Assembly (NCBI GenBank): GCA_902802355.1
Contig: CADCLU010000002.1
Location: forward strand, 27,573-91,572
Origin: an uncultured Erysipelotrichaceae bacterium
GTDB taxonomy: Bacteria; Bacillota_I; Bacilli_A; RFN20; CAG-826
Reading direction: 5' to 3'
Length of the DNA stretch: 64,000 nucleotides
The position numbers and the translations under genes were made by a program. Shown here piece by piece: positions 11,350 through 55,672 of the stretch (position 1 is the first letter of the stretch; each line of letters opens with the position of its first letter). A model generated the notes under the pieces. It had not been told where the DNA came from. It made no database searches and saw only the letters and a program-made list of their open reading frames with translations.

Positions 11350-11424
11350 GCTCGCTTAGCTCAATGGCAGAGCACCTGGCTGTTAACCAGGGTGTTGTAG
11401 GTTCGAGCCCTATAGCGAGCGCCA
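11350..11424 (+). tRNA. tRNA-Asn (anticodon GTT)
   Basis: Acceptor GCTCGCT/AGCGAGC, anticodon stem CCTGG/CCAGG, loop CTGTTAA, CCA encoded. Confidence 0.9.
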
Positions 11425-11429
11425 TTTAT

Positions 11430-11506
11430 GGCCTGTTGGAGAAGCGGCTTAACTCACATGCCTTTCACGCATGCATTCATGGGTTCGAATCCCGTACAGG
11501 TCACCA
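11430..11506 (+). tRNA. tRNA-Glu (anticodon TTC)
   Basis: Acceptor GGCCTGT/ACAGGTC, D-loop AAGCGGCTTAA, anticodon loop CTTTCAC, CCA encoded. Confidence 0.9.
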
Positions 11507-11519
11507 AAGACGTAAAACA

Positions 11520-11551
11520 AGCCTGACACGAAGTGTGTCGGGCTTTTTTTA
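11520..11551 (+). terminator. rho-independent terminator after the tRNA pair
   Basis: 10-bp stem agcctgacac/gtgtcgggct, loop gaag, then TTTTTTT. Confidence 0.75.
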
Positions 11552-11597
11552 TCATAAAGGGTGGTTTTTGCTTGTTCATAAAGCGTATTCTTTTCAT

Positions 11598-12719
11598 ATG
11601 AGCAAAATGTCATCCCTCTTCAATACGAAGAAAAAGAAGATCTATTCTTTGGACGATGAGAAGTTCTATCTCGCGATGAAGGAGAACTGTTCTTTCCATT
11701 ACGAGCACAACAAGAAATACAAGGAGCTTCTCGATGGATTTGGCTTCAAGCCATCCGATATCAATTCCTATGAGGATTTAGCGAAAATCCCCTTCATTCC
11801 GACCTTATATTTCAAGCACCACAACCTCTTGTCCTTGAAAAACAGCAAATATATCGTCAAGGCCACTTCTAGCGGAACGAGTGGGCAGAACGTCTCCATA
11901 ATCGGTTTCACTTTAGGCGATTTGCTTAGAGGCTGGAACATGGTTAGGAGGGTGTTCTCCTACCATCATTTATGGTCGCTTAAACCACACCGCTACATCA
12001 TTTTTGGCTACCAACCGCATAAAGGAAACGACAAAGCGATCGCCAAGACCGCTTGGGGCTTCACTTTCGTCACCCCTGCTTTAAGCAAGGACTATGCGAT
12101 CAGATGGGTTGACGGAGGCTACAAAGTCGATCTCGATAATCTTGAGAAGAAACTCATCAAATACTCAAAAGGGAAAGCCCCTGTGAGAACCCTTGGATTC
12201 CCTGCTTACACCTACTTCTTGCTAGAGCAGATGAAAGCCAAAGGCATCAAACTCAAGCTCCCTAAAGGCTCAATCCTTTCTTTAGGCGGAGGTTGGAAGT
12301 CTTTCTATAAAGAAAAAGTCGACAAACAGACCTTCTATGACCTGGCCTATGAGGTCCTCGGAATCGATGACAAACACATCTTCGAATTCTTTGGCGCGGT
12401 CGAGCATCCAATCCTCTACACCGATTGCAGGTATCACCACTTCCACATACCGAATTACGCTCGCGTTATCATCCGCGACGTCGAGACCCTTGAGCCAGTT
12501 AAGCCAGGCCAGCCAGGCCTCATCAACCTTCTTACCCCAATGTGCTTAGGCGCCCCACTTCTTTCCGTCATGACCGACGATATCGGCATCCTCCACGAAG
12601 AGACTTGCCCATGCGGTGAGAAGTCGATGTATCTCGAAATCCTCGGCAGAAGCGGCATCGAAGATATCAAAACATGCGCAGCCGGGGCCGAAGATCTTCT
12701 GAAAGGAGAGAAGTCATGA
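11598..12719 (+). CDS. LuxE-like acyl-protein synthetase (fatty-acid activating, PaaK/LuxE superfamily)
   Basis: Real start is MSKMSSLF. The track ORF 11364 runs through two tRNAs and a terminator. Pattern FHYEHNKKYKELL...DLAKIPFIPTLYFK...ATSSGTSG matches LuxE-type enzymes. The stop overlaps the next start (ATGA). Confidence 0.65.
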   Translation: MSKMSSLFNTKKKKIYSLDDEKFYLAMKENCSFHYEHNKKYKELLDGFGFKPSDINSYEDLAKIPFIPTLYFKHHNLLSLKNSKYIVKATSSGTSGQNVSIIGFTLGDLLRGWNMVRRVFSYHHLWSLKPHRYIIFGYQPHKGNDKAIAKTAWGFTFVTPALSKDYAIRWVDGGYKVDLDNLEKKLIKYSKGKAPVRTLGFPAYTYFLLEQMKAKGIKLKLPKGSILSLGGGWKSFYKEKVDKQTFYDLAYEVLGIDDKHIFEFFGAVEHPILYTDCRYHHFHIPNYARVIIRDVETLEPVKPGQPGLINLLTPMCLGAPLLSVMTDDIGILHEETCPCGEKSMYLEILGRSGIEDIKTCAAGAEDLLKGEKS

Positions 12720-13981
12720 TTCTTTATAAAGGCGAAGTCTATCCTGACGGAAAGCAAGAAGAGCTCATCTCCTCTTTAGAGGGAGATATGCTCGAAACAC
12801 TTCAAAACAACAGAACACTTACATATAACGACGTTATTGACGCTTGCGACAAACTCTACCAAAGGGTCATGAACCATGAATTCGATAACATCGTTTTGCC
12901 TCTTCTTGAGATGGCAAACATGCCTTATTCCACCTTTGAGAGATACGCGAAATACTTCTCCAAAGAAGGTCTCCTCAAAAAGATTGATATCGAATTAGGC
13001 GACCTTAAAAACGGCGAACTCGATCTTGACGAAGAAAACACCCGCCACTACGAGCCTTTAGGCATTCTTTTCCATATCGCGGCCGGAAACGTCGATCTCC
13101 TTCCCGCTTACAGCGTGGTCGAAGGACTTCTCGTTGGAAATATCAACATCCTCAAACTCCCTACCGGGGACAACGGAATGTCCATCCGTTTGCTTCAGGA
13201 ACTCATCAAAGAGTCTCCTATTCTCAAAGACTACATCTACGTCTTCGATGTCCCAAGCACCGAAGTCGAGACCATCAAGCAACTTGCCAACCTCGCCGAT
13301 GCAACGATCGTTTGGGGCGGCGATATGGCGCAGAAAGCTGCCAGAACATTCGTCGACATCCATTCGTCGATCATCTCCTGGGGCCATAAGATCTCTTTCA
13401 CCTACGTGGACAAGAACGTCACTGATGAGGAACTCAAAGCCTTATGCGAATCAATCTGCGCGACAAACCAGCTCTTCTGCTCCTCTAGCCAAGGAATATA
13501 CGTCAACACCGACGACATTAACGAACTCAAGGCTTTAGCGGAACGCATCCTTCCTCTATTCGCTGAAACAAGCAAGAGGATGGGAACTTTGCCTCTTACG
13601 ATGAAAGCCAAGAATTCCTTGCTCATCTATAACGAGAAACTTGAAGGCAATGCGGATAAAGTCTTCATGAAAGACGGTGTCTCCATCATCGTCAAAGAAG
13701 ACAACAAATTAGAGCTTTCTTTCTTGTTCCAGAACATCTGGATTAAGCCTCTAAAGAAAGAGGACATCATCAAGGTCCTTAAACCAAACAAGAACCTGCT
13801 TCAAACCGTTTCCATCAATAAACTAATCGAAGGCAAGAAAGAGATCTCTTCCCTCTTGGCCAAAGCAGGCGCCACAAGGATAACCGCGCTTGGTGATAAT
13901 TCGCGCATGCTCGCTGGCGAAAGCCATGATGGTGAGTACGCTTTAAGGCGCTACATCAGAGTCGTCGAAACAATAAAATAA
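12716..13981 (+). CDS. LuxC-like acyl-CoA/acyl-protein reductase (aldehyde-forming)
   Basis: HIAAGNVDLLPAYSVVEGLLVGNINILKLP block and candidate catalytic Cys in NQLFCSSSQG. Translationally coupled to the LuxE-like gene. Confidence 0.65.
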   Translation: MILYKGEVYPDGKQEELISSLEGDMLETLQNNRTLTYNDVIDACDKLYQRVMNHEFDNIVLPLLEMANMPYSTFERYAKYFSKEGLLKKIDIELGDLKNGELDLDEENTRHYEPLGILFHIAAGNVDLLPAYSVVEGLLVGNINILKLPTGDNGMSIRLLQELIKESPILKDYIYVFDVPSTEVETIKQLANLADATIVWGGDMAQKAARTFVDIHSSIISWGHKISFTYVDKNVTDEELKALCESICATNQLFCSSSQGIYVNTDDINELKALAERILPLFAETSKRMGTLPLTMKAKNSLLIYNEKLEGNADKVFMKDGVSIIVKEDNKLELSFLFQNIWIKPLKKEDIIKVLKPNKNLLQTVSINKLIEGKKEISSLLAKAGATRITALGDNSRMLAGESHDGEYALRRYIRVVETIK

Positions 13982-16942: not shown

Positions 16943-16979
16943 AAAACCGCCAGGTATAAGCCTGACGGTTCGTTTTTTT
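16941..16979. terminator. bidirectional terminator between convergent permease and ACP genes
   Basis: 10-bp stem aaccgccagg/cctgacggtt (1 mismatch) flanked by an A-run and a T-run. Confidence 0.6.
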
Positions 16980-16990
16980 ATTTTGATTGC

Positions 16991-17224
16991 TTATTTGGCA
17001 AGCTTCTTTTCGATTGAAGCAAGAAGATCGCCGACGGTCTTAAACTCAGCGAGCTCTTCTGGGCTGAATTCGATGCCATACTTGTCTTCTAAATCAAGAC
17101 ACATCTCAACGACATCGAGACTGTCGAGTCCGAAATCTTTGAGGGATTTGGCCTCGTCGATGGTTTCAACTTTCATTCTTTCGCAAAATAACTTGCGGAT
17201 TTCAATCATTTGGTCTGCGCTCAT
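16991..17224 (-). CDS. acyl carrier protein (stand-alone)
   Basis: 77 aa with the phosphopantetheine site LDSLDVVEM. GAGGT SD. Confidence 0.8.
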   Translation of the reverse strand: MSADQMIEIRKLFCERMKVETIDEAKSLKDFGLDSLDVVEMCLDLEDKYGIEFSPEELAEFKTVGDLLASIEKKLAK

Positions 17225-17290: not shown

Positions 17291-17470
17291 TTAGAGGGTC
17301 ACCGTCATATTCGGATTTGCGAACTTGACGCTGCCATTGGCGTCGACGGTGATGTTCTTATTAACTGCTTCTGCGCTTGTGGCGAAGGCTGGGATGAGGA
17401 TTCCAAGAATCGTTCCGAAAGCCGCCAAAACAAGAATCATGCCAAGAAGCTGTCCTTTGAGTTCCGACAT
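17291..17470 (-). CDS. 59-aa Flp/class-III-type pilin-like protein (not in ORF track)
   Basis: GGAAAGGAGG SD lies 7 nt before the ATG. Sequence: MSELKGQLLGMILVLAAFGTILGILIPAFATSAEAVNKNITVDANGSVKFANPNMTVTL. It has a short charged leader ending KG, then a ~25-aa hydrophobic helix. It is the last gene of the Tad-like operon. Confidence 0.6.
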   Translation of the reverse strand: MSELKGQLLGMILVLAAFGTILGILIPAFATSAEAVNKNITVDANGSVKFANPNMTVTL

Positions 17471-17485
17471 AAAGTACCTCCTTTC

Positions 17486-17827
17486 CTATTCGATGTATCC
17501 GATCATCACGCTACGCCTGACCTCGAGTATCATGGTTTCGCGTGACATTATGATTGGCTCGTATTTACGGGTTACGACATATTCGAAGACCTCCCCTACT
17601 GTCAGATAATCTTTGTCGACTGGGATGATGTCAGCCTTCGCGTTATTCTCAACGAATTTACGGGTGTTATCGCTGATGAAGCCTTCTAGTGAAATAATGT
17701 GACCAGCCGTTATGGCCACACTATTAAGAGCGCTGTAAATCTGTTGAATGACCGTCAAGTCTCCGACATAAGCCATGACTTGAACGGCAAAGAAGAGAGA
17801 TAAAAGAAAACCTAAGCTAGATCCCAT
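17486..17827 (-). CDS. N-terminally anchored small protein (TadE/DUF4320-like minor pilin candidate)
   Basis: 113 aa with one N-terminal hydrophobic helix. The start overlaps the stop of the upstream platform gene. Confidence 0.5.
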   Translation of the reverse strand: MGSSLGFLLSLFFAVQVMAYVGDLTVIQQIYSALNSVAITAGHIISLEGFISDNTRKFVENNAKADIIPVDKDYLTVGEVFEYVVTRKYEPIIMSRETMILEVRRSVMIGYIE

Positions 17828-18524
17828 AAGTAAGATTCCCCATGATAACGACGATCGCGACGATGATTAGGCCCATCGTCAAGGCGCTGTCTGCCAAAGG
17901 CAGAAAGTTGTTGTTATTCAGCGTGCTCTCGAATTTGCTTAACTCGCTTTTTCTTTTCTCGTTGGCGATCGATGAGAAGACGCTTTCAAATTGTTCGATG
18001 TAGGTGGATGAACCGCCTTCGTTCCCCATCTTGTAGATGCTTATCATTACCTGACGTATCTCTAAGCTTTTGAAATGCGAGGCGAAATTGAGATAAGGCT
18101 TCACGCTTTTGTCTTTGTCTATTTCGCCTAGTAGGTTTGTAAGATGGTCGCTCATCTCCGGAGAGGCATAACGAATGCAGTCCTCGATGGCGTTGTAGAC
18201 TGGCCTGCCATTCCCAACAAATATTTTGAAATAAGAGAAAATGTGGACGAATTCCTTCTCTAAAGCCTCGACTTTGATCTTTTTGACCCTATTCACTTTT
18301 CCTAGAAGGAAATAATCGGCAGCGACAAGAAGAAGGCCAATCGATATAGGAGCGATGAGCGCTTCAGTCATCTTGTATATGAAGGCAGCAAAGACGAGCA
18401 ACAGCACGTTCCCCAATACGATGATGGCTATTTCTTTCTTAGGGTTAAGACCTGCTTCCCTAAGCGCAAGGGTCCAAGGTTTTTTCGGTTTTTTGTTTTT
18501 CTTCTTCATATCATTTCCTTTCAA
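17817..18524 (-). CDS. TadC-like platform protein (single T2SSF-type domain)
   Basis: 235 aa: Lys-rich N-terminus, TM helices near the N-terminus, a helical cytoplasmic domain and a C-terminal TM. Positioned after the TadB-like gene. Confidence 0.55.
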   Translation of the reverse strand: MKGNDMKKKNKKPKKPWTLALREAGLNPKKEIAIIVLGNVLLLVFAAFIYKMTEALIAPISIGLLLVAADYFLLGKVNRVKKIKVEALEKEFVHIFSYFKIFVGNGRPVYNAIEDCIRYASPEMSDHLTNLLGEIDKDKSVKPYLNFASHFKSLEIRQVMISIYKMGNEGGSSTYIEQFESVFSSIANEKRKSELSKFESTLNNNNFLPLADSALTMGLIIVAIVVIMGNLTYGI

Positions 18525-19209
18525 GACTCATCTTTTCGCCCGTATATGACCTCGCGTAGATGAAGAAGGACGCTAGGGCGATAAGGAAATAAGCGATGGC
18601 CGTAAGAAGATAAGGGAGATTCTTCGTCAAAGAGTCATAGAAGTTTGAGAGCCCAAAGCGGAGAAAAACCAGAACAAGAGTGCTTAAGAACCAAAGTGAG
18701 CCATACTGGACAAGTGATTTCCTTCTTATCGTCTCAAGGGAATTGTGTTTTTCCTCATTGAAGACCGCCTCATTAAGCAAAGAAGAAGACATCTCGAGGA
18801 GATCTCCCCCTTCTTCCATATAGGCCTTGACGATGGACAAGAAGACCGGGTATATATCCTCCTCGAAATATCTCAGGAGATACTCAAGCTTCTCCATCGG
18901 CGAAAGAGGGGTTATAGAATCGAGAACCTTTTTCTCCTCACCCTTCGCGTCGATGGTGGCATCTTCAAAGGCCTGGTCAAGCGACGATGTGACGGAAAGC
19001 GAAATAATGAAATGGTTGATGAAATTGAAGACCTCATGGCGTTTCCTCCTTTTTTCGAGATACCTTTTGACGATGGGTCTTATGAAAACGATCAGAACAG
19101 CGAAATAGGATAAGAAGACAATCGCTCCCAAAGGGAGGCTATTGGTTGTCACATAGGCGATGCCCCCGAAATATAGGGACAAAAGCAAATAAAGAACGAT
19201 GCCTTTCAT
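18511..19209 (-). CDS. TadB-like platform protein (single T2SSF-type domain)
   Basis: 232 aa with the same topology as its neighbour. 4-nt overlap with the ATPase stop. Confidence 0.55.
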   Translation of the reverse strand: MKGIVLYLLLSLYFGGIAYVTTNSLPLGAIVFLSYFAVLIVFIRPIVKRYLEKRRKRHEVFNFINHFIISLSVTSSLDQAFEDATIDAKGEEKKVLDSITPLSPMEKLEYLLRYFEEDIYPVFLSIVKAYMEEGGDLLEMSSSLLNEAVFNEEKHNSLETIRRKSLVQYGSLWFLSTLVLVFLRFGLSNFYDSLTKNLPYLLTAIAYFLIALASFFIYARSYTGEKMSLERK

Positions 19210-20168
19210 GACTTATTCCCCCTTTCGTAAAGCACAGTCATCTTTTGGCTATCCTCATCCAGTTTTCCAATCTCTTTGATGAAACGTTTTATAGAACCAT
19301 CTTTGGCCACTTCCTTCTCAACGTATACGTAATATCGAAGGTGCCTAGAGATATCCTCCATAAGCTCGTCTTTGAAGAGCCTTCTGTTGCCGATCATCGC
19401 TAGCCTGGCTACACGGTCAGGCATCGCTCTAAGCTCCTGGGCATGGATGGTCGTGATAATCGGATGCCCGCTCATGGCGCTAAGCAAAGCATCTAACATC
19501 TCTTCCCCTCTCGCTTCGGCTAAAACGATGTAATCAGGATCGTTTCTCAAAGCGTTCTTGATAAGGGAGGAGAAGGAGACTCCTTTCCCTTGTTCCGTAA
19601 CTAACCAAGTCGTTAAATCGATGTTCTCGTTCTCGACCATATCGAGCTCTTCAACGTTGTCGATAACGATAACCCTCGTGCAGGGCATCATATTCTGAAG
19701 GAGCCATTTCTGAAGTTCGGTTTTGCCGCTAGAGACCTTCCCTCCGATGACGATTGATTCCCCTTCTTTTATCAATCGACGCAGGATTTGCATGGATTTT
19801 TTATCGAAGAAGCCTGAATCATCGGTAATTTTGCAATCGTTGCTCTCTAACCTAAGAGAGAAGGTATAAGTCTTCTGATTTTTCCTTCTTGCAAGCGAGG
19901 AGTTGACCGCGTTGATTCGGTACCTCCCAAAACTCACATCAAGGAATGGGCTTTGGACGCTGAATTGCTTCTCCGTGAGGTTTGCAAGCTGCCTCAAGAA
20001 AGAAGAGACATCCTCCTTTTTCGCTTCAATGGATGACCTTTGCCGTCCCTTGTCATTAGAAACATAGAAAAGGGATTCTCCGTTATAAGAAATATCTGTC
20101 ACCCCTTCTTGAACTAACAAAGGCGAGAGAAAGGAGCTCTCGAGATACGCTACAGGATCTCCGCTCAT
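19206..20168 (-). CDS. CpaF/TadA/VirB11-family secretion ATPase
   Basis: Walker A GGKVSSGKT, Walker B/Asp box DPDYIVLAEARGEE, His box GHPIITTIHA. Confidence 0.85.
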   Translation of the reverse strand: MSGDPVAYLESSFLSPLLVQEGVTDISYNGESLFYVSNDKGRQRSSIEAKKEDVSSFLRQLANLTEKQFSVQSPFLDVSFGRYRINAVNSSLARRKNQKTYTFSLRLESNDCKITDDSGFFDKKSMQILRRLIKEGESIVIGGKVSSGKTELQKWLLQNMMPCTRVIVIDNVEELDMVENENIDLTTWLVTEQGKGVSFSSLIKNALRNDPDYIVLAEARGEEMLDALLSAMSGHPIITTIHAQELRAMPDRVARLAMIGNRRLFKDELMEDISRHLRYYVYVEKEVAKDGSIKRFIKEIGKLDEDSQKMTVLYERGNKS

Positions 20169-20551
20169 ATGGCTTTTCCCTCCCTAATTTCAAATGCCTT
20201 ATAAGCAGTGTATGAATACCTACCGTTGTTGAACTTGCAGGTAAAACACATGTCTACCCTTGATACGTATTCGGTTCTTTTCCCATCGCCGCCTTTGAAA
20301 TCGAGACTAACGTTCCAATCGTCGACGCTGTATTTCTCTAGGCTCACTGTGAAATAGTCATCCGCGATGTGATGAAAAAGCCTTTCGCTGAAATAGGCCG
20401 AACCCCCATAAGGATCTGAGATAACTGCGTTCTGAGCGTATGTGAAATCAAAAGCCGTGAACGTGTTCACTATGCCGTTAGAAGTATACGAATAGGAATA
20501 GGCGGAGACAGAAAGCACGAAGAGGGCCACAAAAAGAAGAAAATTAAGCAT
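20165..20551 (-). CDS. N-terminally anchored protein, unknown (pilus-associated candidate)
   Basis: 128 aa. Hydrophobic N-terminus MLNFLLFVALFVLSVSAYS. Overlaps both neighbours. Confidence 0.5.
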   Translation of the reverse strand: MLNFLLFVALFVLSVSAYSYSYTSNGIVNTFTAFDFTYAQNAVISDPYGGSAYFSERLFHHIADDYFTVSLEKYSVDDWNVSLDFKGGDGKRTEYVSRVDMCFTCKFNNGRYSYTAYKAFEIREGKAI

Positions 20552-21677
20552 CTGCTTTCACCTCCGTAACGTAGTAGCGGCTGTTGATTTTAGGACCAAC
20601 GTCATTCGAATAACGGAAGACCTTGAAATCATGAATCAACGTATCGGCATTCTGATCCCCTACGCCTTCTAAACGAATCTGGCAGTCATAGAACCTCCCA
20701 TTCATCCCTCTGACCGGCGGAAGAAAGATTTGGGTCGTCATGCCATAACCTTCGTTCTCGGAACGGTATTCGCTAGTTTGATAACGTATGTCTTCTTTAA
20801 CGAAGAGGAACTTCTTCGAACGGAGATATGATTCCTTTCCATCCGGCAAGAGCGTGAGAGGAACCGTTATGTATGGATTGTTTTTCTCATCGACCTTTCT
20901 TGTGCCGATATGAAAATCATCAAGGTAGTTATAGAAACGGACTTCCCCGCTTTTCATCGTGAGGGGAGTTGAAGAATAATCGTATTCCTGCTTATGGAAT
21001 CTCATCTCTTTAAGGGGCAAAATCCCCTGCGAATCGACCTCATATTCGTCTTTAAGGTCTTTAGAAGAAACCACCACATAATGAGCGTTGGCAAGGGCTT
21101 GTCGTCCGTTATAGTAGCCACCGAAACATTTCGAATTCGTGTATGAGTGGCCGCCCTTAAGGCTGAACTCGGTTGGAGCTATGTATCCATATGGAACCTG
21201 AACATTCCAGGATTCCACCGTTTCAGGTTTAACAAGAACCCTTGTCTCGACATCGAGATGCTGATCTTCATATCCGATGTGCATCTGAGAATATGGGACA
21301 ACGATCTCGAAATCGATAGTCTCCCCTTTCTTGTAATGGCGGAAGTCGAAACGGGCATCAAAATAACTAAGACCAGGCCTGACATCGCCTCTAATCTCGT
21401 TTTTGATTTTGCCGTTTTCCCTATATGTGTGATCGGCTTGAACGCTTAGGGTGACATCGGCATCCTTGAGCATATGCATCCTCAGGATGACCCTTCGGTC
21501 CTTTTGATCGTTTGGCTGCCAATAGAAGTCCTCAATGTAGCAGGTTTGGGTAACTGTCTGCCAGACATAATCGAAAGACCAAGCAGAGGAAAGAAACGGG
21601 GTCAAAGAACAAAGGGCAAGGAGAACTGCTTTCAGCTTGCGCCCATAAGATATCCGTATTTGTCTTTCAGCTTGCAT
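20544..21677 (-). CDS. secreted/anchored beta-rich protein, unknown function
   Basis: 377 aa. N-terminal signal-like KAVLLALCSLTPFLSSAWS. No recognisable catalytic motif. Confidence 0.55.
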   Translation of the reverse strand: MQAERQIRISYGRKLKAVLLALCSLTPFLSSAWSFDYVWQTVTQTCYIEDFYWQPNDQKDRRVILRMHMLKDADVTLSVQADHTYRENGKIKNEIRGDVRPGLSYFDARFDFRHYKKGETIDFEIVVPYSQMHIGYEDQHLDVETRVLVKPETVESWNVQVPYGYIAPTEFSLKGGHSYTNSKCFGGYYNGRQALANAHYVVVSSKDLKDEYEVDSQGILPLKEMRFHKQEYDYSSTPLTMKSGEVRFYNYLDDFHIGTRKVDEKNNPYITVPLTLLPDGKESYLRSKKFLFVKEDIRYQTSEYRSENEGYGMTTQIFLPPVRGMNGRFYDCQIRLEGVGDQNADTLIHDFKVFRYSNDVGPKINSRYYVTEVKADA

Positions 21678-21994
21678 TCTAACTTTCTCCTTTCTTGCTC
21701 ATAGAAATCTCTGTTCCCGAATTTCATCCACCAGAAGCGGTAATTGTTCCCTTTCTCGAGATAATCATTCACAAAGATGAGGCCTTGGACGAATGTGAGA
21801 TTCCTAAAGAACTCATTGGTCTTGAGGAGGAAAGAAGCATCCTTCCTAGGCATGCGGAACCTCAGATATGAGGTATTAAGGTCATACACATGCGTGTTTG
21901 AAGGGAAACCGCTATGGAACAGGGAGGAGGAATACTCCTTTTTGATGATTTCCTCTAAGCGGATGGTTTTCTTTTTCGGTTCGTTTTCGTTCAT
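21632..21994 (-). CDS. basic cytoplasmic protein, unknown function (first gene of the Tad-like operon)
   Basis: GAGGA SD lies 8 nt before the ATG at 21994 (MNENEPKKK). The 3' end overlaps the next ORF by 46 nt. Confidence 0.45.
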   Translation of the reverse strand: MNENEPKKKTIRLEEIIKKEYSSSLFHSGFPSNTHVYDLNTSYLRFRMPRKDASFLLKTNEFFRNLTFVQGLIFVNDYLEKGNNYRFWWMKFGNRDFYEQERRKLECKLKDKYGYLMGAS

Positions 21995-22135
21995 ATTGCA
22001 GGTCCTCACTTATCCAATATTGGGAAAGGGACCATTTTTCACAAAAAAGATGAAAAAACCAGGACTCATCGAAGAAGAAATTTTTCGACTCAAATTGCCG
22101 ACATCAGGAAAGAAAAAGTGGGTTATAATAAGGCC

Positions 22136-25122: not shown

Positions 25123-26946
25123 TTAGTCTTCGTCGTCTCCGCTATCGCTGCCATCATTAACATAGTTAACGAGATCGGCGGCGTAGTCGCGGGTGTCGAC
25201 TGGAGCTCCAGCGGTCAAGCCGGCTTTTCCGCAGACATCATCGATGAGCTGCTTGGCACGCTTGACGGAGAGACCACTTCTGACCTTGAAGCAAAGAGGA
25301 ATGTCTTTGTAGAGGTTCTTGTGGCCAACGTCCTGGACTGGGATTGGGGAATCGGCATAATCCTTTGGATCGAGGGCGAAGTAGAGCTTGAGGCCTTTTC
25401 CGACCATGTTGATACGGAAGTAGGTCTTGGTGTGGAGACGGAAGGTGTCACCACCATTGGCAACACGGCTCTTAAGGCCATAGCCTAAGGCGTAGGCTTT
25501 GAGGTCGTTGTAGTTGTCTTTGACTTCCTGAGGGGCGGCAGTGACTTTCTCAGCGAAGGAGAGACGGATCACTGGGGCAGCGGCTGGAGCTGGCTCCGGC
25601 TCTGGCTCAGGTGCTGGCTCTGGCTCAGGCTCAGGCTCTGGTGCTGGCTCTGGCTCAGGTGCTGGCTCTGGTGCTGGCTCGACTTCTTCCACAACAGCGA
25701 TGTTCTGGAGGTATTTGGCGAGCTCTTCGGCGATGATGGTACGGACTTCATCGGAAGTGAGGGACTCTTTCTCCTCTTTTGGAGCGCCGAGTTCTTCACG
25801 GATGATGTCACGGACTTCTTCTTTGGTAAGGGAAGGCTCTTCGGATGGTTTCATGGCGCCTTCGACTTCCTCTTTGATCATCTTTCTGAGGTCGTCAGCG
25901 GTCATGACGTCGGATTCTTCCTCTTCGACTTCTGGCTCTTTTTCCTCTTTGCAGGTGTAGTAGTCAGAAAGTTCTTCCTGGATGACTTCGCGGGCTCTTT
26001 CGTCGGTGAGAGGCTCTAATTCCTCTGGATGCTCGCGGTCGTCGAGTTCTTCACGGATGATAGCGCGGAGCTCTTTAGCGGTAAGAGGTCTATCCTCTTC
26101 TTCTGGCTCTGGCTCAGGTGCTGGCTCAGGTTTTGGTTCTTCTTTGTGCTCATGGCAATGGCACTCATGATATGGAGGATATGGCATTGGAGCACCGTTA
26201 TAGAAGTTCTGGATGATGTAAGGTCCGGCCTTCTCATCTTTCTCTTCTTCTTCGGCTTCGCATTCGCATTCCTCTTCGTCTTCTTCGTATTCGTCAGCGT
26301 TCTCATCAACAACGGCTTTCTTCTTTTTCTCTTTGGCAAGAACAGCGGTTGATTTGATGATGGCGACGAGGCCGAGGATGTAGGCGGCAAGTAAGACAAG
26401 GATAAAGAGTCCGGCAGCAAGGGCGAGACCTTTACCATATTCGCTGGAGATGGAGCTTCCGATAGCGCCTAAGGCATCGTGATAGTAGGCCATTCCATCT
26501 TTGGCCATGCCAGATCCCTCAAAGAGAGAACCCACGAAGGAGGATCCGTTTTTGGCTGGGACGATGGCGAGAGTCAAGAAAATGATGCTAAGACCCGCAC
26601 CGATTAACCAGGCGAGGTTTGGAATTAAGTGGATTGGCTTCTTCTTAACGATAAGAAGAATGAGGTTGATGATCCACATGATGACAAGAACTGCAAGGGC
26701 CGCAAGGAGCAAGACATCTACGATGAGGACGCCAATCTCAAACTTAGCAAAAAGTGCTTTGTTCTCGAAACCCATGAGAGTTCCGAACACGGCTGGCAAT
26801 TCACCGAAAGCGGCAAAGAGATCGGCGCTCTTGAACGACCAATCACCTGTCCAGCTCGGGGCCACGATGTAGACTGCGATACCAGCGCCAAATAAGACGA
26901 CTGAAAGAATCGCAAGAACGAAAATTGGAGCTTTTGATTTTTTCAT
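25123..26946 (-). CDS. membrane-anchored repetitive acidic/Pro-rich protein with conserved C-terminal globular domain
   Basis: About 6 N-terminal TM helices, acidic ECECE and HECHCHEH clusters, PEPEPAPEP tracts, five LTxEEvRxIIxEEL repeats, and C-terminal RLSFAEKV...LKLYFALDPKDY. Confidence 0.7.
   Translation of the reverse strand: MKKSKAPIFVLAILSVVLFGAGIAVYIVAPSWTGDWSFKSADLFAAFGELPAVFGTLMGFENKALFAKFEIGVLIVDVLLLAALAVLVIMWIINLILLIVKKKPIHLIPNLAWLIGAGLSIIFLTLAIVPAKNGSSFVGSLFEGSGMAKDGMAYYHDALGAIGSSISSEYGKGLALAAGLFILVLLAAYILGLVAIIKSTAVLAKEKKKKAVVDENADEYEEDEEECECEAEEEEKDEKAGPYIIQNFYNGAPMPYPPYHECHCHEHKEEPKPEPAPEPEPEEEDRPLTAKELRAIIREELDDREHPEELEPLTDERAREVIQEELSDYYTCKEEKEPEVEEEESDVMTADDLRKMIKEEVEGAMKPSEEPSLTKEEVRDIIREELGAPKEEKESLTSDEVRTIIAEELAKYLQNIAVVEEVEPAPEPAPEPEPAPEPEPEPEPAPEPEPEPAPAAAPVIRLSFAEKVTAAPQEVKDNYNDLKAYALGYGLKSRVANGGDTFRLHTKTYFRINMVGKGLKLYFALDPKDYADSPIPVQDVGHKNLYKDIPLCFKVRSGLSVKRAKQLIDDVCGKAGLTAGAPVDTRDYAADLVNYVNDGSDSGDDED
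25575..25685 (-). repeat. in-frame tandem hexanucleotide-type repeat (encodes (P-E/A)n tract)
   Basis: Plus strand shows ggctc(t/a)gg(c/t) and gctggctc units iterated over about 110 bp. A shorter second tract lies at 26098-26135. Confidence 0.8.
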
Positions 26947-44165: not shown

Positions 44166-45515
44166 TTATTCCTTTTTCTCCTTTTCGTAGAAGAGCGCGA
44201 TCCTTCTTAGATAGGCATTTTCTCTCTTGTCCTTGCTGACGTCATCAAGATAAGCCTTCATTGAATTGAGGTTATGCTTCTGGTCAAGCGAATCCATGTA
44301 GTGATAGTAATCGATGATGGCCAGATAGTATTCCATGAAGAAGGTGTTCTGGATCTGGGTGTCGATGATGCCTTCGAAGTTCTTCTTGAGCTTGGACCTT
44401 TCTTTGTAGGTCTTCTTAAGCCATTCCTTGGCCTCTTCTTTATTGCCTAAGAAATCATTGGAGACGTAAAGGTTCCTATAGATATAGGCTCTGATGAGGG
44501 AATCGAGTCCGATGGCATCTGCGTTGTCATCCTTCTTGCCCGAACTCTCAAGCACCTCGAGGTTCTCAAGGGTCTTGTGGGAGTATTCGATTGCTCTTTT
44601 GTGCAGCCCCGTCCTGTCTTCATTATCAAGGCTTTCGTTGTTGGCAAGAAGCATGTAGGCGAAGGAATAATGGTTGTAGATATAAGTCCTCATCCACTGC
44701 GAGAAATAATCATCTACTTCTGGGTCTTCGAGTTCGAGGTCATCGAAAATCTGCCTATAGCTTTCCCTGAACTCGCAGAAGGTGTCCTCGTCGATGTAGA
44801 CGTTTGAGGTCTCTGGATAGGATTTGATCTCACTTGTGAGTTTGAAGAAAGAGAGACACATCTTGACTGAGCATCTGAGTTCTAGCGAGAACTCGGTGTT
44901 ATGCTCACGATGGAACTTCTCGATTTCCTTTTGGACCTTCTTCTCGTCCTCGAACATGTGGGCGGCTTGCATATAGAAGATGATGTATTGGGCAAGCTCA
45001 TAGTCGGAGCACTTTGAGCCAGCGCTCGAATAATGGGAAGCGATTTTCTCTTTGATCTGATAACGGTTGTCGATGAGGGTCATCTTCTCCTCAGGAATCG
45101 ACATCTTCTGTCTCTTGAGGAAGTAATCGACGATGCCTCTTGCGAAGGCCTCATCATCACCAGATGCGATAGGCTCGACGAAGGAGCTATCGAAGTCGGA
45201 TGGGAGGACGATCTTCTCTTCCCTCTTCTTGACGCAGTGGATTTTCCTCGTGCCATATCTAGCAAGGACGTAGCCGAGCTCAAAGAAGACGTTGTTGCTC
45301 ACATTGCCGTCGGCCTTGTTCTGGAAGATGACGATGGCTTGGTTGCAGCTTTTGATCTGCTGGATGATCGTGTCCCCTACAGACGAATACTGGGAGTCGT
45401 TGTCGCTGTTTCCGCCTATATAGCAGATGTAGTCGTGCTCGTTATCGAGTATCTCTTTGACTTTCTCGGCGACTGATCTTGTTCCGCTCCAGGCGATGAA
45501 TACCTTTCCTCTCAT
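44166..45515 (-). CDS. TIR-like (COG4271/Cap12-type) nucleotide-binding domain fused to alpha-helical TPR-like domain
   Basis: N-terminal ~130 aa: KVFIAWSG..., GDTIIQQI..., AIVIFQNKADG, NNVFFELGYVLARYG, VLPSDF. The C-terminal ~300 aa are helical and repeat-like. Confidence 0.6.
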   Translation of the reverse strand: MRGKVFIAWSGTRSVAEKVKEILDNEHDYICYIGGNSDNDSQYSSVGDTIIQQIKSCNQAIVIFQNKADGNVSNNVFFELGYVLARYGTRKIHCVKKREEKIVLPSDFDSSFVEPIASGDDEAFARGIVDYFLKRQKMSIPEEKMTLIDNRYQIKEKIASHYSSAGSKCSDYELAQYIIFYMQAAHMFEDEKKVQKEIEKFHREHNTEFSLELRCSVKMCLSFFKLTSEIKSYPETSNVYIDEDTFCEFRESYRQIFDDLELEDPEVDDYFSQWMRTYIYNHYSFAYMLLANNESLDNEDRTGLHKRAIEYSHKTLENLEVLESSGKKDDNADAIGLDSLIRAYIYRNLYVSNDFLGNKEEAKEWLKKTYKERSKLKKNFEGIIDTQIQNTFFMEYYLAIIDYYHYMDSLDQKHNLNSMKAYLDDVSKDKRENAYLRRIALFYEKEKKE

Positions 45516-45524
45516 GGTGTTACC

Positions 45525-46169
45525 TCACTTTAGATTTTCTATGTCGTCTATTTTTTCCTGAATCTTGTTGATGAGCCTCGCGGAATGAACACCATCCACT
45601 AAGGCGTGGTGTCCGGCGACATCGAAGGCCATTTCGTATTTATCGCCCTTAAGAACATACTTGCCCCAAGTGACCCTTGGGATGCTCGTTTGCTCTTTGT
45701 CGGTGAAGTTATATGGGTTATTCATTGAGGTGAAATCGATCCACTGGAGGCTAGAGACGAAAATCCTATCGATTCTCTTAATCGATTCGAAGCCTTCGGA
45801 TTCCTCGTGTCTCGCTCTTTCGATGTCGGCTTTCGCCATTCTGTGGAACATTTCGTAGTCGGAGATAGACTCACTCAAGCAGGTGACGAGCTCATCATCC
45901 TCTTTGAGAACGATATAGCTTGGATGGACTTTATCAAAGATAACGACCTCATCGTCTTTGATTCTCATCCTCCACTCAGGAATCTCGTTCATGGCCTCGC
46001 TCATGATGTAGAGGAGAGTCACGAAGAAGGATTTCTTGTTCTCTTTGCAGAATTTGACGAGTTTGGTGACATCAAGCCTCACGGTGACCGAAAAGATTGG
46101 GTTCGTGTATTTGATGAAGTTCTCGTATTGGGCTCTTCTCGCCCAGTTCTTGATATCGATTTTTTCCAT
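45525..46169 (-). CDS. chloramphenicol-acetyltransferase-family (type A CAT-like) acetyltransferase
   Basis: 214 aa. C-terminal catalytic block AGHHALVDGVHSARL (compare the HHAVCDG signature). Confidence 0.75.
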   Translation of the reverse strand: MEKIDIKNWARRAQYENFIKYTNPIFSVTVRLDVTKLVKFCKENKKSFFVTLLYIMSEAMNEIPEWRMRIKDDEVVIFDKVHPSYIVLKEDDELVTCLSESISDYEMFHRMAKADIERARHEESEGFESIKRIDRIFVSSLQWIDFTSMNNPYNFTDKEQTSIPRVTWGKYVLKGDKYEMAFDVAGHHALVDGVHSARLINKIQEKIDDIENLK

Positions 46170-46890: not shown

Positions 46891-48555
46891 CTAGATATTG
46901 GCCTCGCTGAGAGCGGAGAGAAAACCGGTGTAGCAAGGTTTCTTCTCGTATTCGCTTGTGAAGAGAAGAGGATACTGGTTCCGTTTCCAGGATTGATCAT
47001 CGGTGACGCCCCAAAGGATGACGGCATTGATGTCGGTCTCTTCAGCAGCGTTATTCTCAAGGACCTTCTTCATGAGGGTCTTGTAGGCTTTGCTCTGGTT
47101 GTCGTATTCACTTTGGCTCGTGCCGTTGATGGTGATATCGATCTCAGTGAGCTGGCACTTCAAGCCTTTCTGTTTGATGAGCTTGGCATCGTTGATGATG
47201 TTGTCCATGTTGGCGTTCGAATCAAGGTGGGTCTGGAGACCTACTCCATCGATAAGACCTTCGGTGATGGCATCAGCAAGGAAGCCATTGAGGGCCCAGT
47301 TACACCAAGTTGGCTGATAGTCGAAGGCGAAGTCGTTGTAATAGAGCTCTTGCCATTCGGCTTTGTATTTGGAGGCGTATTTGAAAGCGTAGTAGACGTA
47401 ATCTTCACCAACGGTTGAATACCAGTTGTTGTTATTGGTTCTGTAACCGCCGTTCTCGACCGCTTCGTTAGCGACGTCGACGGCATAGACGAGCTCAGGC
47501 CATCTCTCATTGATGGTGTCGAGGGTAACTTGGATGAAATTCTCCATTCTCTCAAGCATGAGAGCGCGGTCGGCTTTAGGACCATTCTGGGTGTAGTCGG
47601 TCGTGAAGAACCAGGCTGGGGTTTGGGAATACCAAACGAAGGTGTGATGTCTCACTCCGATGTTATTCTCAGCGGCCCAATCATAGATTCTCTCAAATGG
47701 CTTTGTGGTGATGGCAACCCCTGCTGGATCTTTAGCAAGAAGAGCCTGGCAAGCCTCTTGGTCGAGGATTCGTTCAGGTTTTCCTTCGTTTTCCGCGGTG
47801 ATGGAATTGAAGTTATCGATGGTGATCTTTCTGACTTCGGTGTTTCTCACCATCGTGTCGGACATACAGGTTCCGATTTTGAAATGGTCCTCATATGTCG
47901 TGTAGAGGGATTCGTCATTGGCAACGTATTTGGTCGTCACTGTTTCTTCACCATAGGTGATCTCAATATCATCGAGGAGGATCGTTCCTGCTTTGCTAGC
48001 ATCGGTGAGGGTGTAATTAAGTCTAAGTGAACCGAGCATATCGAGGGTGTCATAGGTCATCTCGATCGCGTTCCATGTGTCCTCTTCGTCAGAGGTAATG
48101 GTGATGGCTTCACCTTTGACGGTTGCGGCACGGCCATTCCACGGGACCGCTTCTAATTGGATGGTCTTGATGTTCGAATTGGCAGGGATGTAGCAATAAA
48201 GGGAAATGATATCGCCGTTCTTGGCGTCTTCGTCTTTGAAGTATGGCTCCTTGATGAGGTCGCTTCCGATATAGCCGTCTTTCGTGAGGCTACATGAAAG
48301 ACAATAAGTGTCATCCATTCCTTCGTCTTCAAGGATCGTGACGGAACCTGAGCCTTCCTGAGCGCCTAAAGGAGCTTTCTCATAGTCCTCTGGCGATGTC
48401 CACATCCTGACGGTGTCGCCAACCTCAAGGGGTTTGCTTTCTTCCGGTTCTTGGCTCTGGTTGGTCGATTTGCGCGGAGTGGTATTGCAACCCGCTAAGG
48501 TCGCAAGGGCAAATAGAGGCATGGTCGCCATCAAAAAAGGAGTCTTTCTTTTCAT
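46891..48555 (-). CDS. lipoprotein endo-1,4-beta-xylanase (GH10) with N-terminal CBM-like domain
   Basis: Lipobox LAGC. GH10 blocks HHTFVWYSQTP, VDVANEAV (acid/base) and LTEIDIT (nucleophile). Confidence 0.8.
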   Translation of the reverse strand: MKRKTPFLMATMPLFALATLAGCNTTPRKSTNQSQEPEESKPLEVGDTVRMWTSPEDYEKAPLGAQEGSGSVTILEDEGMDDTYCLSCSLTKDGYIGSDLIKEPYFKDEDAKNGDIISLYCYIPANSNIKTIQLEAVPWNGRAATVKGEAITITSDEEDTWNAIEMTYDTLDMLGSLRLNYTLTDASKAGTILLDDIEITYGEETVTTKYVANDESLYTTYEDHFKIGTCMSDTMVRNTEVRKITIDNFNSITAENEGKPERILDQEACQALLAKDPAGVAITTKPFERIYDWAAENNIGVRHHTFVWYSQTPAWFFTTDYTQNGPKADRALMLERMENFIQVTLDTINERWPELVYAVDVANEAVENGGYRTNNNNWYSTVGEDYVYYAFKYASKYKAEWQELYYNDFAFDYQPTWCNWALNGFLADAITEGLIDGVGLQTHLDSNANMDNIINDAKLIKQKGLKCQLTEIDITINGTSQSEYDNQSKAYKTLMKKVLENNAAEETDINAVILWGVTDDQSWKRNQYPLLFTSEYEKKPCYTGFLSALSEANI

Positions 48556-52148: not shown

Positions 52149-52642
52149 AATAGCTCCTTTCTTAGTTTCTCTTTCGCAATGCTGTAAATCCTTCTGGCAG
52201 AGGATTCGGGGATGCCGGTCTCCTCGACGATCTCCTCCCAGGAATAGGAATGGATTGCGCGTAGATAGACTATGATTGTCTCCTTGTTGGAAAGGAGGGG
52301 TTCGATCATGTTGAGGACAGGGTTGCTTCTTTCTTCTTCGCCGTATATCTCCTCAATGAGATCGGAGGAAGGGAGAGCTCTGTTCTTCTTCATGAAATCG
52401 ATAGCCTTATTTTTGGCGATCGAACAGAGGAAGGATTTGAGTTTGTTAGGATCTTTTAGTTGATCCTTATGCTCAACCGCCTTAAGGAACGCCTCGCTCA
52501 AAACATCGTCACAGTCGTCTTGGCTTTTGACGTAGGCGGCGATGACGAAATACATGAGATTTTTGTACTCAAGGTATACTTTTTCGATGGCTTCTTGGTT
52601 GCCGGCAATGAAGCCAATCGCCGTACGTTTTGAGATCGGCAT
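52139..52642 (-). CDS. ECF-type sigma-70 family RNA polymerase sigma factor
   Basis: Region 2 (YKNLMYFVIAAYV...DDCDDVLSEAF) and region 4 (SWEEIVEETGIPESSARRIYSIAKEKL). GGAGGGGG SD before the ATG at 52642. Confidence 0.8.
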   Translation of the reverse strand: MPISKRTAIGFIAGNQEAIEKVYLEYKNLMYFVIAAYVKSQDDCDDVLSEAFLKAVEHKDQLKDPNKLKSFLCSIAKNKAIDFMKKNRALPSSDLIEEIYGEEERSNPVLNMIEPLLSNKETIIVYLRAIHSYSWEEIVEETGIPESSARRIYSIAKEKLRKELLWA

Positions 52643-52655
52643 TTTTCCCCCTCCA

Positions 52656-52750
52656 CCTATAAGACTTAAAAAGAATGAGAAAACGCTCAAAAAGTTTCTA
52701 AGCATATCAAGGATATGAAAAAGAGGATTGCAAATGCAACCCCTCTCTCA
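52656..52750 (-). repeat. 95-bp leader repeat, copy A (upstream of the sigma factor gene)
   Basis: Identical to 53723-53818 except for one substitution and one 1-nt indel. Contains a small hairpin + T-run and a TTGATA box. Confidence 0.9.
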
Positions 52751-55156: not shown

Positions 55157-55672
55157 TTAACTCATGCCAATGGAATTTTCTTCTTTCGTCTTGGGGTTAT
55201 TCCTTCTAAGTACCTCGCAAACTAGAGCCTTTAAATAGGCATAGAAACAAAATAGTCCGTTGCCAATTCCAAGAGGAAGCATTATAAACACCGGGTAAAG
55301 CAAAGATACGCCGATTACGCGGATGCCTCCATTTGGCAGATCGATAACCTCAACGTTGAAGTGTGCATTGATGACGGCAATAGCGACAAGCAAGTAGATG
55401 GGAGCGATAAACACGAAAACCAAATAATCGTTCTTCAGAACGCGATTTTTCTTTATCAACAAAAAGAGTAAGACGGTGCAAACTACCATTAAGCCGCAGC
55501 AAAACAAGAAAGCCACTTTAAAGACGTCAATGACAAATCCGAAAAACGAGATGAAAAAGCCCGCGCACAAACCGGAAGAGAACACGAGCAACGTCAAAAG
55601 ATATATCCCTGCTACTGCTGATTTTTTGATACTTAGCAATGATTCTTGTTTTATGAATGTCTTCATGGTCAC
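55157..55672 (-). CDS. small polytopic membrane protein (4-5 TM), unknown function
   Basis: 171 aa, AT-rich codons, 25 nt downstream of the 310-aa gene. Confidence 0.55.
   Translation of the reverse strand: MTMKTFIKQESLLSIKKSAVAGIYLLTLLVFSSGLCAGFFISFFGFVIDVFKVAFLFCCGLMVVCTVLLFLLIKKNRVLKNDYLVFVFIAPIYLLVAIAVINAHFNVEVIDLPNGGIRVIGVSLLYPVFIMLPLGIGNGLFCFYAYLKALVCEVLRRNNPKTKEENSIGMS

Follow-up and report, generated by a model that had tools for sequence, protein, structure and literature searches.

A compact chromosomal operon of uncultured rumen and gut Bacilli, probably for a minimal type IV filament machine, and its closest relatives on Firmicute conjugative plasmids

The 64,000 nucleotides analysed here (hereafter the window), which belong to an uncultured Erysipelotrichaceae bacterium (assembly GCA_902802355.1, contig CADCLU010000002.1, positions 27,573 to 91,572), carry on the minus strand an operon of eight genes, named g1 to g8 in their order within the operon, which probably encodes a minimal type IV filament machine of a distinct and so far undescribed subfamily, fixed in the chromosome of uncultured Bacilli from the rumen and gut. 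This reading rests on the association of an ATPase of the appropriate class (g4) with two platform proteins of the GspF fold (g5 and g6), TadF/DUF4320-like proteins and a pilin-like subunit of about 50 amino acids (aa). The original prediction had proposed a compact and divergent Tad/Flp-like pilus operon, and the eight open reading frames (ORFs) were found at the coordinates it gave. The unusual shortness of all the components is borne out, and so is the Tad-like gene order, in which an ATPase and two single-domain platform proteins come ahead of one protein that resembles a pseudopilin and a short one that resembles a pilin. Membership of the Tad/Flp family in the strict sense is not supported, however, since the ATPase falls outside the CpaF clade and the pilin-like protein lacks the G/XXXXEY motif.

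The eight ORFs are real genes and not chance occurrences, since they are conserved in order in other genomes and metagenomes, including the 59-aa ORF g8; the original prediction had made its case depend on the conservation of the small ORFs in relatives, and these are conserved. Among the 30 genome loci and six metagenomic loci compared, the same genes occur in the same order wherever the contig covers the region, with the exception of the Paenibacillus locus L030. In the most divergent loci g1 to g3 and, in a few of them, g8 were not detected by tblastn. The shared flanks consist, on one side, of a pair of CNNM transporter genes together with a guanylate-kinase-like gene (gmk) in divergent orientation, and on the other side of acpP, so that the succession of divergent gmk, eight genes and acpP, for which a synteny check had been proposed, is kept in relatives. 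The divergent arrangement of gmk and g1 is retained in all loci, and synteny persists over ATPase identities of 96% to 43%, with g6 falling to about 31%. A rumen metagenome-assembled genome (MAG), JAEEWP01 ('Bacillales bacterium Tb.RUG.482'), is nearly identical to the window organism, and more than 1358 homologues of g4 come from metagenomes or from MAGs that bear the label Bacilli, Bacillales, Erysipelotrichaceae or 'Mollicutes' bacterium. The operon is a large conserved family and not an oddity of the window genome. Owing to the identical housekeeping flanks and gene order across divergent relatives, it is to be regarded as a vertically inherited, core-type chromosomal feature of an uncultured rumen and gut Bacilli lineage, not as an island.

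The motor of the machine would be g4. The Walker A box, Asp box, Walker B box and His box can all be read in its sequence, including the motifs quoted in the original prediction (GGKVSSGKT, DPDYIVLAEARGEE and GHPIITTIHA), and g4 matches the Pfam family T2SSE with an E-value of 7.7e-19 and a score of 68 bits (cutoff 24.9). When all eight proteins were scanned with Pfam and NCBIfam, g4 was the sole member of the operon to reach a curated family threshold; the Pfam check suggested earlier thus succeeded for the ATPase and left the other seven proteins below any curated threshold. With respect to the specialised models, g4 scores 118 bits against the TadA-type model TIGR03819 of NCBIfam (cutoff 373), 109 bits against the VirB11 model (cutoff 250), 72 bits against TrbB (cutoff 305) and 62 bits against ComGA (cutoff 300), stays far under the cutoff of the NCBIfam FlaI model, and matches spore_III_AA only at an E-value of 0.09. 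Its PDB matches are equidistant between archaeal GspE2, VirB11, FlaI and CpaF. Taken together, these matches point to a predicted hexameric secretion-type ATPase of the PilT/VirB11/TadA superfamily.

The position of g4 within this superfamily was approached by neighbour joining of 26 ATPases along 240 columns, a simple distance method applied to a small taxon set. In the resulting tree, the g4 family is sister to a clade of 'VirB11-like' ATPases from Firmicute plasmids (bootstrap 65 for the pair, 100 for the plasmid clade), and both clades stand outside CpaF (100, including a Firmicute TadA), TrbB (100), VirB11 and archaeal GspE2/FlaI (100). The phylogeny that had been proposed as a check therefore places the ATPase neither in the CpaF clade nor in the archaeal one. 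It also leaves it outside the VirB11 and TrbB clades of conjugative systems, whose combination with relaxase or coupling-protein genes had been named as evidence against the prediction and was not found in the window.

The two genes following g4 encode the candidate platform proteins. Both proteins are paralogous (hhalign 87.6-90.9%, E about 1e-6). In g5, two N-terminal transmembrane helices are followed by a helical domain on the cytoplasmic side, which bears an invariant GG motif, and by two C-terminal transmembrane helices; weak matches to Pfam T2SSF occur in four of 17 orthologues, and of the canonical Tad proteins TadB of the Paenibacillus locus L030 matches best (hhalign E 3.8e-4, 199 columns). 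The corresponding best match of g6 is TadC of the same locus, the E-values of g5 and g6 against L030, like that of the g3/plasmid hidden Markov model (HMM) comparison reported below, having been obtained in tiny local databases and used only to rank neighbours. An AlphaFold2 model of g6, built from an alignment of 42 sequences, has a mean predicted local distance difference test score (pLDDT) of 80.7 and places a cytoplasmic domain made of helices between two transmembrane helices at the N-terminus and one at the C-terminus. Compared with the PDB by Foldseek, this model retrieves as its top seven matches cytoplasmic domains of the GspF family (EpsF, OutF), with probabilities of 0.98-1.0, followed by PilC and by SpoIIIAB (6bs9); the matches as a whole have probabilities of 0.95-1.0 and target-normalised template modelling (TM) scores of 0.64-0.68. 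The Pfam T2SSF threshold is reached by neither g5 nor g6, and among the best 120 of the 891 homologues of g6 none has a Pfam domain. The earlier claim of two platform proteins is supported by the GspF fold of the g6 model and the paralogy of g5, although there is no significant Pfam T2SSF match. In summary, g5 and g6 weakly match TadB-like and TadC-like platform proteins, respectively, each with one cytoplasmic bundle.

Three small proteins accompany this motor and platform. The family of g7 comprises 108 clusters at 50% identity, all of them full-length (111-121 aa), and Pfam scans of 100 members taken singly gave weak TadF matches in 11 and DUF4320 matches in five (best E 3.8e-4), with no further Pfam family in more than two of the 100 members and all matches below the gathering thresholds. 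These matches suggest, weakly, that g7 is an N-terminally anchored pseudopilin-like protein of TadE/TadF/DUF4320 type. In 16 divergent orthologues of g8, the residues M1, E3, K5, G6, Q7, L8 and F18 are invariant. The first nine residues are essentially unchanged; a leader-like MSE(L/I)KG is followed by Q and by a hydrophobic helix of about 22 residues, and the C-terminal half varies in both sequence and length. As judged from the alignment, g8 is conserved in the manner of type IV pilins, constant at the N-terminus and variable at the C-terminus. Similarly, six of the 12 weak matches obtained by the g8 profile in the PDB correspond to the α1-N helix of type IV pilins, all of them sub-significant (E 0.39-2.5), and the alignment with the α1-N helix of PilE-type pilins takes in Gly and Pro positions. 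These features make g8 a candidate major pilin. The possibility that g8 is a Sec-secreted peptide cleaved at AFA|TS was rejected, the AxA site being unconserved and the N-terminus invariant. As for g3, a hydrophobic helix occupies its extreme N-terminus and the remainder is β-rich; 17 loci keep it upstream of the ATPase, and it is possibly a second pseudopilin-like protein or an assembly protein; homology between g3 and g7 (hhalign E 0.009) is too weak to be called. Pfam scans of 104 orthologues of g1, g2, g3, g7 and g8 taken singly returned weak TadF matches only, and PDB profile searches with g1, g3, g5, g6 and g7 returned nothing meaningful.

The resemblance to the Tad/Flp systems, such as the Cpa system of Caulobacter, the Tad system of Aggregatibacter and those of Clostridia and Paenibacillus, lies in the presence of one ATPase, two single-domain GspF-type platform proteins, a candidate pilin in the range of about 50-60 aa and small N-terminally anchored proteins that may be pseudopilins. 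The operon could accordingly be read as an ordinary divergent Tad/Flp (type IVc) pilus, whose TadV and possibly TadZ would be encoded elsewhere in the genome and whose Flp-like g8 would be cleaved after Gly6, an explanation that we hold to be unlikely. The gene order, the TadB/TadC-like pairing, the weak TadF/DUF4320 matches of the g7 family and the invariant Gly ahead of the hydrophobic helix of g8 all agree with it, as do the annotation of homologues as CpaF or TadA by JGI and NCBI and the known variability of Gram-positive Tad loci, some of which have 'Flp-like' pilins devoid of Tyr6 (PMC3244431). However, g4 lies outside the well-supported CpaF clade and far below the TadA-type cutoff (118 versus 373 bits), and g8, which possesses neither Glu5 nor Tyr6, shows no match to Flp_Fap or Flp1_like at E<=1, either by itself or in 26 orthologues. 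Among all the proteins of the window operon, Flp_Fap and TadE gave no match at E<=1. In contrast, the Paenibacillus locus L030, a canonical Firmicute Tad locus with TadZ-like, TadA, TadB, TadC, Flp1_like and TadE components, is readily recognised by Pfam (3e-15 for its pilin against Flp1_like), which is not the case for the window operon.

The missing genes point in the same direction. The absence of Peptidase_A24, of a ParA-like TadZ/CpaE and of a secretin, on which the original prediction had insisted, holds across the whole window among all ORFs of at least 150 aa and all ORFs with several transmembrane segments, and no A24 peptidase, TadV or TadZ was found within 8-10 kb on either side of the operon in six related loci. 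A 171-aa ORF with five transmembrane segments (55157-55672), tried as an A24 peptidase, was rejected, having no GxGD motif and no Pfam match. The ParA-like ATPase TadZ/CpaE and TadV are absent from the operon in the window and in all related loci and present in the L030 and pXO1 loci, so that the operon differs from the Tad/Flp systems by its lack of TadV, TadZ and RcpC-like genes in the locus, as well as by its shorter components. Variant tad loci of Gram-positive bacteria retain tadV, tadZ and rcpC (Imam et al. 2011), and the tad locus described from Bulleidia, within the Erysipelotrichales, is a canonical locus of 13 genes accompanied by comG and is different from the window operon. The lack of a secretin, which had been pointed out, would be unremarkable, since no secretin is expected if the organism is monoderm, as its assignment to the Bacilli suggests.

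The closest relatives of the operon were found on plasmids. A tblastn search of g4 against 72,556 plasmids returned as best matches the full-length ATPases of Firmicute conjugative plasmids (27-33% identity, E 1e-25 to 1e-34), namely pBT9727, pXO2, pAW63 and plasmids of the pLS20 family, of Listeria and of Paraclostridium, where they are labelled 'CpaF/VirB11 family'; true VirB11, CpaF and TrbB proteins gave E-values of 1e-9 to 1e-13, those of VirB11 and TrbB spanning 1e-9 to 1e-12. Conjugative plasmids account for 951 of the 1637 matching plasmid records, those of the pXO2, pLS20 and Listeria types ranking at the top. In the plasmid modules, a gene for a large surface protein or thioester adhesin is followed by genes for an N-terminally anchored protein of about 127 aa, an ATPase of 402-441 aa, two proteins of about 270 and 245 aa with N- and C-terminal transmembrane helices, a further N-terminally anchored protein of about 120 aa, and a protein of 47-51 aa with a single transmembrane segment, which is often duplicated. 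The gene for the 'putative VirB11' is thus followed by those for two TadB/TadC-like proteins, a DUF4320-like protein of 120 aa and one or two pilin-sized proteins of 47-51 aa with a conserved ML(D/E)QNTDR N-terminus. In pLS20, the corresponding genes are 34 (Tie adhesin), 36, 37 ('putative VirB11') and 38-41, genes 36 and 38-41 being listed as 'Unknown' (PMC8557374), and coding sequences (CDS) 19-24 of pAW63 represent the equivalent module (PMC1196294); in both cases the ATPase is taken for VirB11 and its neighbours for unknown proteins (PMC8557374, PMC1196294). According to papers related to pLS20, Gram-positive conjugation systems seem to have no pili and sortase does not anchor the TIE adhesin. 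The layout of the module suggests the presence of a Tad-like filament in systems that are said to be devoid of pili, and this Tad-like reading of the plasmid module, drawn from sequence comparison, seems to be new.

Profile-profile comparisons by hhalign relate most of the operon to the plasmid proteins: g5 to p38 (91.9%, E 6.9e-7, 209 columns), g6 to p39 (76.2%), g7 to p40 (71.1%, E 3.7e-5, 104 columns) and, weakly, g3 to p36 (13.5%, E 2e-3; HMM E 1e-4 in a 25-sequence set), with no homologue of g1 or g2 detected in the plasmid module. Both systems share the order of their genes, similar protein sizes, the position of a large surface protein upstream and ATPases that are mutually closest. They differ in that the operon is chromosomal, resides in a housekeeping neighbourhood and is devoid of type IV secretion system (T4SS) genes; in that g4, with 320 aa versus 402-441 aa, lacks an N-terminal extension of some 90-120 residues; in that thioester adhesins stand in the plasmids instead of g1 and g2; and in that the N-terminus of g8 reads MSELKGQ versus MLDQNTDR, the ATPases being identical by about 30%. 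These nearest relatives (pLS20 36-40 and pAW63 CDS 19-23) had been overlooked by the original prediction and bring the operon close to the VirB11 affiliation that would have counted against it; the plasmid ATPases, however, themselves precede TadB/TadC-like and pseudopilin-like genes. A more canonical Tad-like pair, consisting of an AAA/ParA-like ATPase and a CpaF/VirB11-family ATPase of 477 aa, occurs in pXO1 (L037, 3836-7029), where it adjoins genes for WxL-domain and DUF916/DUF3324 surface proteins; the WxLIP type of fold also appears among the weak fold matches of g2. Tentatively, and as a possibility to which we give less weight than to the filament machine itself, the operon and the modules of pLS20, pXO2 and pAW63 might form a single unrecognised Firmicute clade of type IV filament machines without co-encoded prepilin peptidase or TadZ, which would serve on the plasmids as a conjugative pilus or an organelle for the display of the TIE adhesin, and in RFN20/RF39-like Bacilli as a core surface organelle.

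Two other explanations draw in part on these plasmid relatives. According to the first, which we consider quite unlikely, the operon would specify a membrane complex of ATPase and platform proteins that builds no filament and operates in translocation or envelope remodelling, in the manner of SpoIIIAA-AB or as the energiser of a T4SS channel, with g8 as a structural membrane subunit. The closest relatives do reside in conjugation operons beside VirD4/VirB4-type genes and are read there as VirB11, SpoIIIAB is among the fold matches of g6, and neither a peptidase nor a detectable homology between g8 and p41 has come to light; yet the operon possesses no equivalents of SpoIIIAC-AH and no T4SS component occurs within the window, whereas a TadF/DUF4320-like g7 and a g8 with pilin-like conservation and α1-N similarity fit filament subunits. 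To our knowledge, VirB11 proteins do not pair with GspF-type platforms, so that the association of g4 with g5 and g6 does not correspond to the anatomy of type IV secretion. A SpoIIIA-like system in the strict sense was rejected, given the spore_III_AA E-value of 0.09, the SpoIIIAB match explained by the shared GspF fold only and the lack of AC-AH-like genes. The second explanation sees in the operon what is left of an integrated conjugative element akin to pLS20- or pXO2-type plasmids, or a cargo carried by one, devoted to DNA transfer and not to a host function, and draws on the predominance of conjugative plasmids among the best plasmid-database matches. It was rejected as highly improbable on the basis of synteny and gene content, for the flanks (two CNNM genes, gmk and acpP) stay identical over the whole range of ATPase identity, g4 is only 27-33% identical to the plasmid ATPases, and a Pfam scan of the ORFs disclosed no relaxase, coupling protein, VirB4 or integrase in the window, which is also free of any anomaly in base composition.

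As had been stated in the original prediction, g1, g2 and g3 match no recognisable family in Pfam or NCBIfam. The protein g1 is soluble, has no transmembrane segment, exhibits the conserved motifs G-x-S-P-D-x-H and E-x-G-R-x-Y-P-F-W-Y, and keeps the first position of the operon in 20 loci; it has no Pfam, NCBIfam or PDB sequence match, and no relatives were detected outside its own family. The AlphaFold2 model of g2 (pLDDT 68 overall, about 90 for residues 40-160) shows an N-terminal membrane anchor (transmembrane helix 12-32) followed by tandem β-sandwich domains, for which Foldseek retrieved arrestin, Vps26, Spo0M and WxLIP-type β-sandwiches with low TM-scores. No function was assigned to g2 from these matches, generic β-sandwiches being unable to provide one. 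The protein evolves rapidly, with only 11 close homologues in a single-sequence search and distant orthologues at the same position that are 23-31% identical, and it occupies the place of the large surface protein or thioester adhesin gene of the plasmid modules. By its position and its fold, g2 is a likely candidate for a surface, adhesin or tip component acting as a binding module.

Besides the Tad/Flp systems, two other families of filaments invite comparison. The ComG competence pseudopilus of Bacilli, a type IV filament of monoderm bacteria, likewise combines an ATPase and a platform with a number of small N-terminally anchored (pseudo)pilins, and offers the model for a possible role in DNA uptake. 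The platform of the operon consists, however, of two single-domain proteins instead of the two-domain ComGB, the order of the genes differs, and the ComGC-type prepilin motif G|FTLxE occurs in none of g8, g7 and g3. In archaea, class III signal peptides of the Epd/Aap type are cleaved by EppA, as in the EppA substrates of Methanococcus. The short leader of g8 ending with K-G, the Gln at +1 and the lack of Glu5 recall the Epd/Aap pili, a likeness limited to a motif of three residues; g4 does not group with GspE2/FlaI in the neighbour-joining tree, and no archaeal-type peptidase or accessory gene was seen. A literature search (RF39/RFN20 pilus, DUF4320, pLS20 with Tad) disclosed no prior description of the chromosomal system.

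A working model of the machine can be inferred, each of its steps, from homology. A hexamer of g4 would operate beneath a membrane platform built from the paralogues g5 and g6, and the ATP-driven movement of this platform would pull the 59-aa g8 out of the membrane. Stacking through its conserved hydrophobic N-terminal helix, g8 would form a thin helical filament of Flp size or a short pseudopilus, the assembly of which would be primed, and the end capped, by g7 and perhaps by g3. The g2 protein would be displayed on the filament or would work alongside it as a binding module, and g1 might act in the cytoplasm as an accessory or regulatory protein particular to the lineage. No secretin would be needed in a single-membrane organism. 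Should cleavage take place at the invariant KG|Q site, it would be due to a peptidase encoded outside the window; the family may, on the other hand, work without cleavage, because the small plasmid proteins have no Gly at that position. With respect to its role, adhesion or cell-cell contact appears most likely by analogy with the plasmid modules, which stand directly behind adhesin genes, and DNA uptake is the main alternative.

Several observations weigh against a filament machine and have to be set beside this model. No protein of the operon other than g4 reaches a curated Pfam or NCBIfam threshold, and the deep nodes of the ATPase tree are weak, as illustrated by the bootstrap of 65 for the clade uniting the chromosomal and plasmid families. 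The Foldseek E-values of the g6 model amount to 0.17-0.95, its support coming instead from the ranking, the probabilities and the TM-scores, and the g2 model is of moderate quality, was obtained from a shallow alignment and has generic fold matches. In g8, Glu5 and the Flp motif G/XXXXEY are missing, with Met at +5 and Ile or Val at +6, and owing to the absence of an A24 peptidase from the window, its processing and hence its identity as a pilin are only putative. By hhalign, no sequence similarity between g8 and p41 was detected beyond size and topology, and in the small plasmid proteins (MLDQNTDR...) the position where cleavage would be expected is not occupied by Gly. Finally, not one member of the family has ever been seen to form a filament, and the pLS20 literature describes Gram-positive conjugation systems as apparently without pili. 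With these points taken into account, a minimal type IV filament machine is still, in our view, probable.

The arrangement of the genes is summarised in Table 1. The tight chaining announced in the original prediction (overlaps of 4-46 nt and gaps of 15 nt or less) matches the measured junctions, which are, from g1 to g8, overlaps of 46, 8, 4, 4, 14 and 11 nt and a final gap of 15 nt. Shine-Dalgarno-like sequences precede g2, g3, g4, g5 and g8, the best one of the operon, GGAAAGGAGG, being located ahead of g8. An alternative GTG start at 22009 would extend g1 to 125 aa. For g6, the ATG at 18509 (230 aa) is probably the true start instead of that of the listed ORF, since it is preceded by the ribosome-binding site AAAGGAAA and the orthologues measure 229-230 aa. 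In the intergenic region between g1 and gmk, a convincing sigma-70 consensus was not found and the counts of the promoter scan did not exceed those of shuffled controls; therefore no promoter is claimed. The acpP gene lies beyond a 66-nt spacer that contains a perfect TATAAT box and is followed by a strong 11-bp terminator at 16944-16971, so that it is probably transcribed separately even though the linkage is conserved; it is found directly downstream of the operon in many related loci.

Table 1. Coordinates of the operon, its surroundings and the plasmid modules (window positions unless a plasmid locus is named)
Feature	Position	Strand	Remark
g1	21632-21994	-	120 aa from ATG
g2	20544-21677	-	377 aa
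g3	20165-20551	-	128 aa
g4 (ATPase)	19206-20168	-	320 aa
g5	18511-19209	-	232 aa
g6	17817-18524	-	235 aa as listed ORF
g7	17486-17827	-	113 aa
g8	17291-17470	-	59 aa
Intergenic region, g1 / divergent gmk-like gene	21995-22117		Inferred promoter/regulatory region of the operon
Weak hairpin at the g8 stop codon	17285-17298	-	Possible partial terminator (terminator scan and intergenic sequence)
acpP	16991-17224	-	Downstream of g8
Plasmid module, pBT9727	L035 8306-12067
Plasmid module, pDSYZ	L036 8406-12265
Plasmid module, Listeria plasmid	L038 3395-7608
Plasmid module, Paraclostridium plasmid	L039 3356-7605

The remainder of the window is ordinary chromosome, with genes for TrkH/TrkA, Sir2, a LuxE/LuxC-like pair, FakA/DegV, purC, gltX, a GH10 xylanase and tRNAs. 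The GH10 xylanase (46891-48555, minus strand), a protein of 554 aa with an N-terminal extension, fits a plant-fibre-associated life in the rumen and would be relevant if the filament mediates attachment to fibres. A gene at 25123-26946 (minus strand) encodes a 607-aa protein with about five N-terminal transmembrane helices and long acidic repeats rich in Pro and Glu (PEPEPAPEPE...), for which there is no Pfam match; in the related loci L031-L034, a large gene without family match (764-785 aa) occupies the same position adjoining the CNNM genes. At 44166-45515 (minus strand), a 449-aa protein with an N-terminal TIR effector domain of the CAP12/Pycsar type adjoins a gene of the chloramphenicol acetyltransferase family (45525-46169, minus strand), and may represent an anti-phage defence gene amid a housekeeping region. 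The LuxE-like acyl-protein synthetase is found beside the LuxC-like acyl-CoA reductase at 11364-13981 (plus strand); its mechanically delimited ORF overruns the genes for tRNA-Asn and tRNA-Glu (11350-11506), so that its true start must be located downstream. Lastly, an extracytoplasmic function (ECF)-type sigma factor (Sigma70_r2; 52139-52705, minus strand) overlaps the start of a 547-aa protein without Pfam match (50505-52148, minus strand), which is possibly its partner as an anti-sigma factor or as a surface protein.

If the proposed function is correct, the type IV filament superfamily would gain a branch that is compact and divergent in sequence. This branch escapes the standard models of Pfam and NCBIfam, which give no family for seven of the eight proteins, and surveys of pili in gut and rumen Firmicutes would therefore under-count it. 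The lineage concerned is uncultured and abundant, and homologues number in the hundreds to thousands in metagenomes from rumen and gut; since the operon is a fixed and syntenic feature of such a lineage, it is likely to be central to attachment, whether to fibre, hosts or partner cells, or to DNA uptake in these small-genome bacteria. In addition, the homology to genes 36-40 of pLS20 and to CDS 19-23 of pAW63 offers, on a question still open in Gram-positive conjugation, a concrete hypothesis that can be tested and, owing to the genetic tractability of Bacillus subtilis and pLS20, the function of the whole family can be tested in that system.

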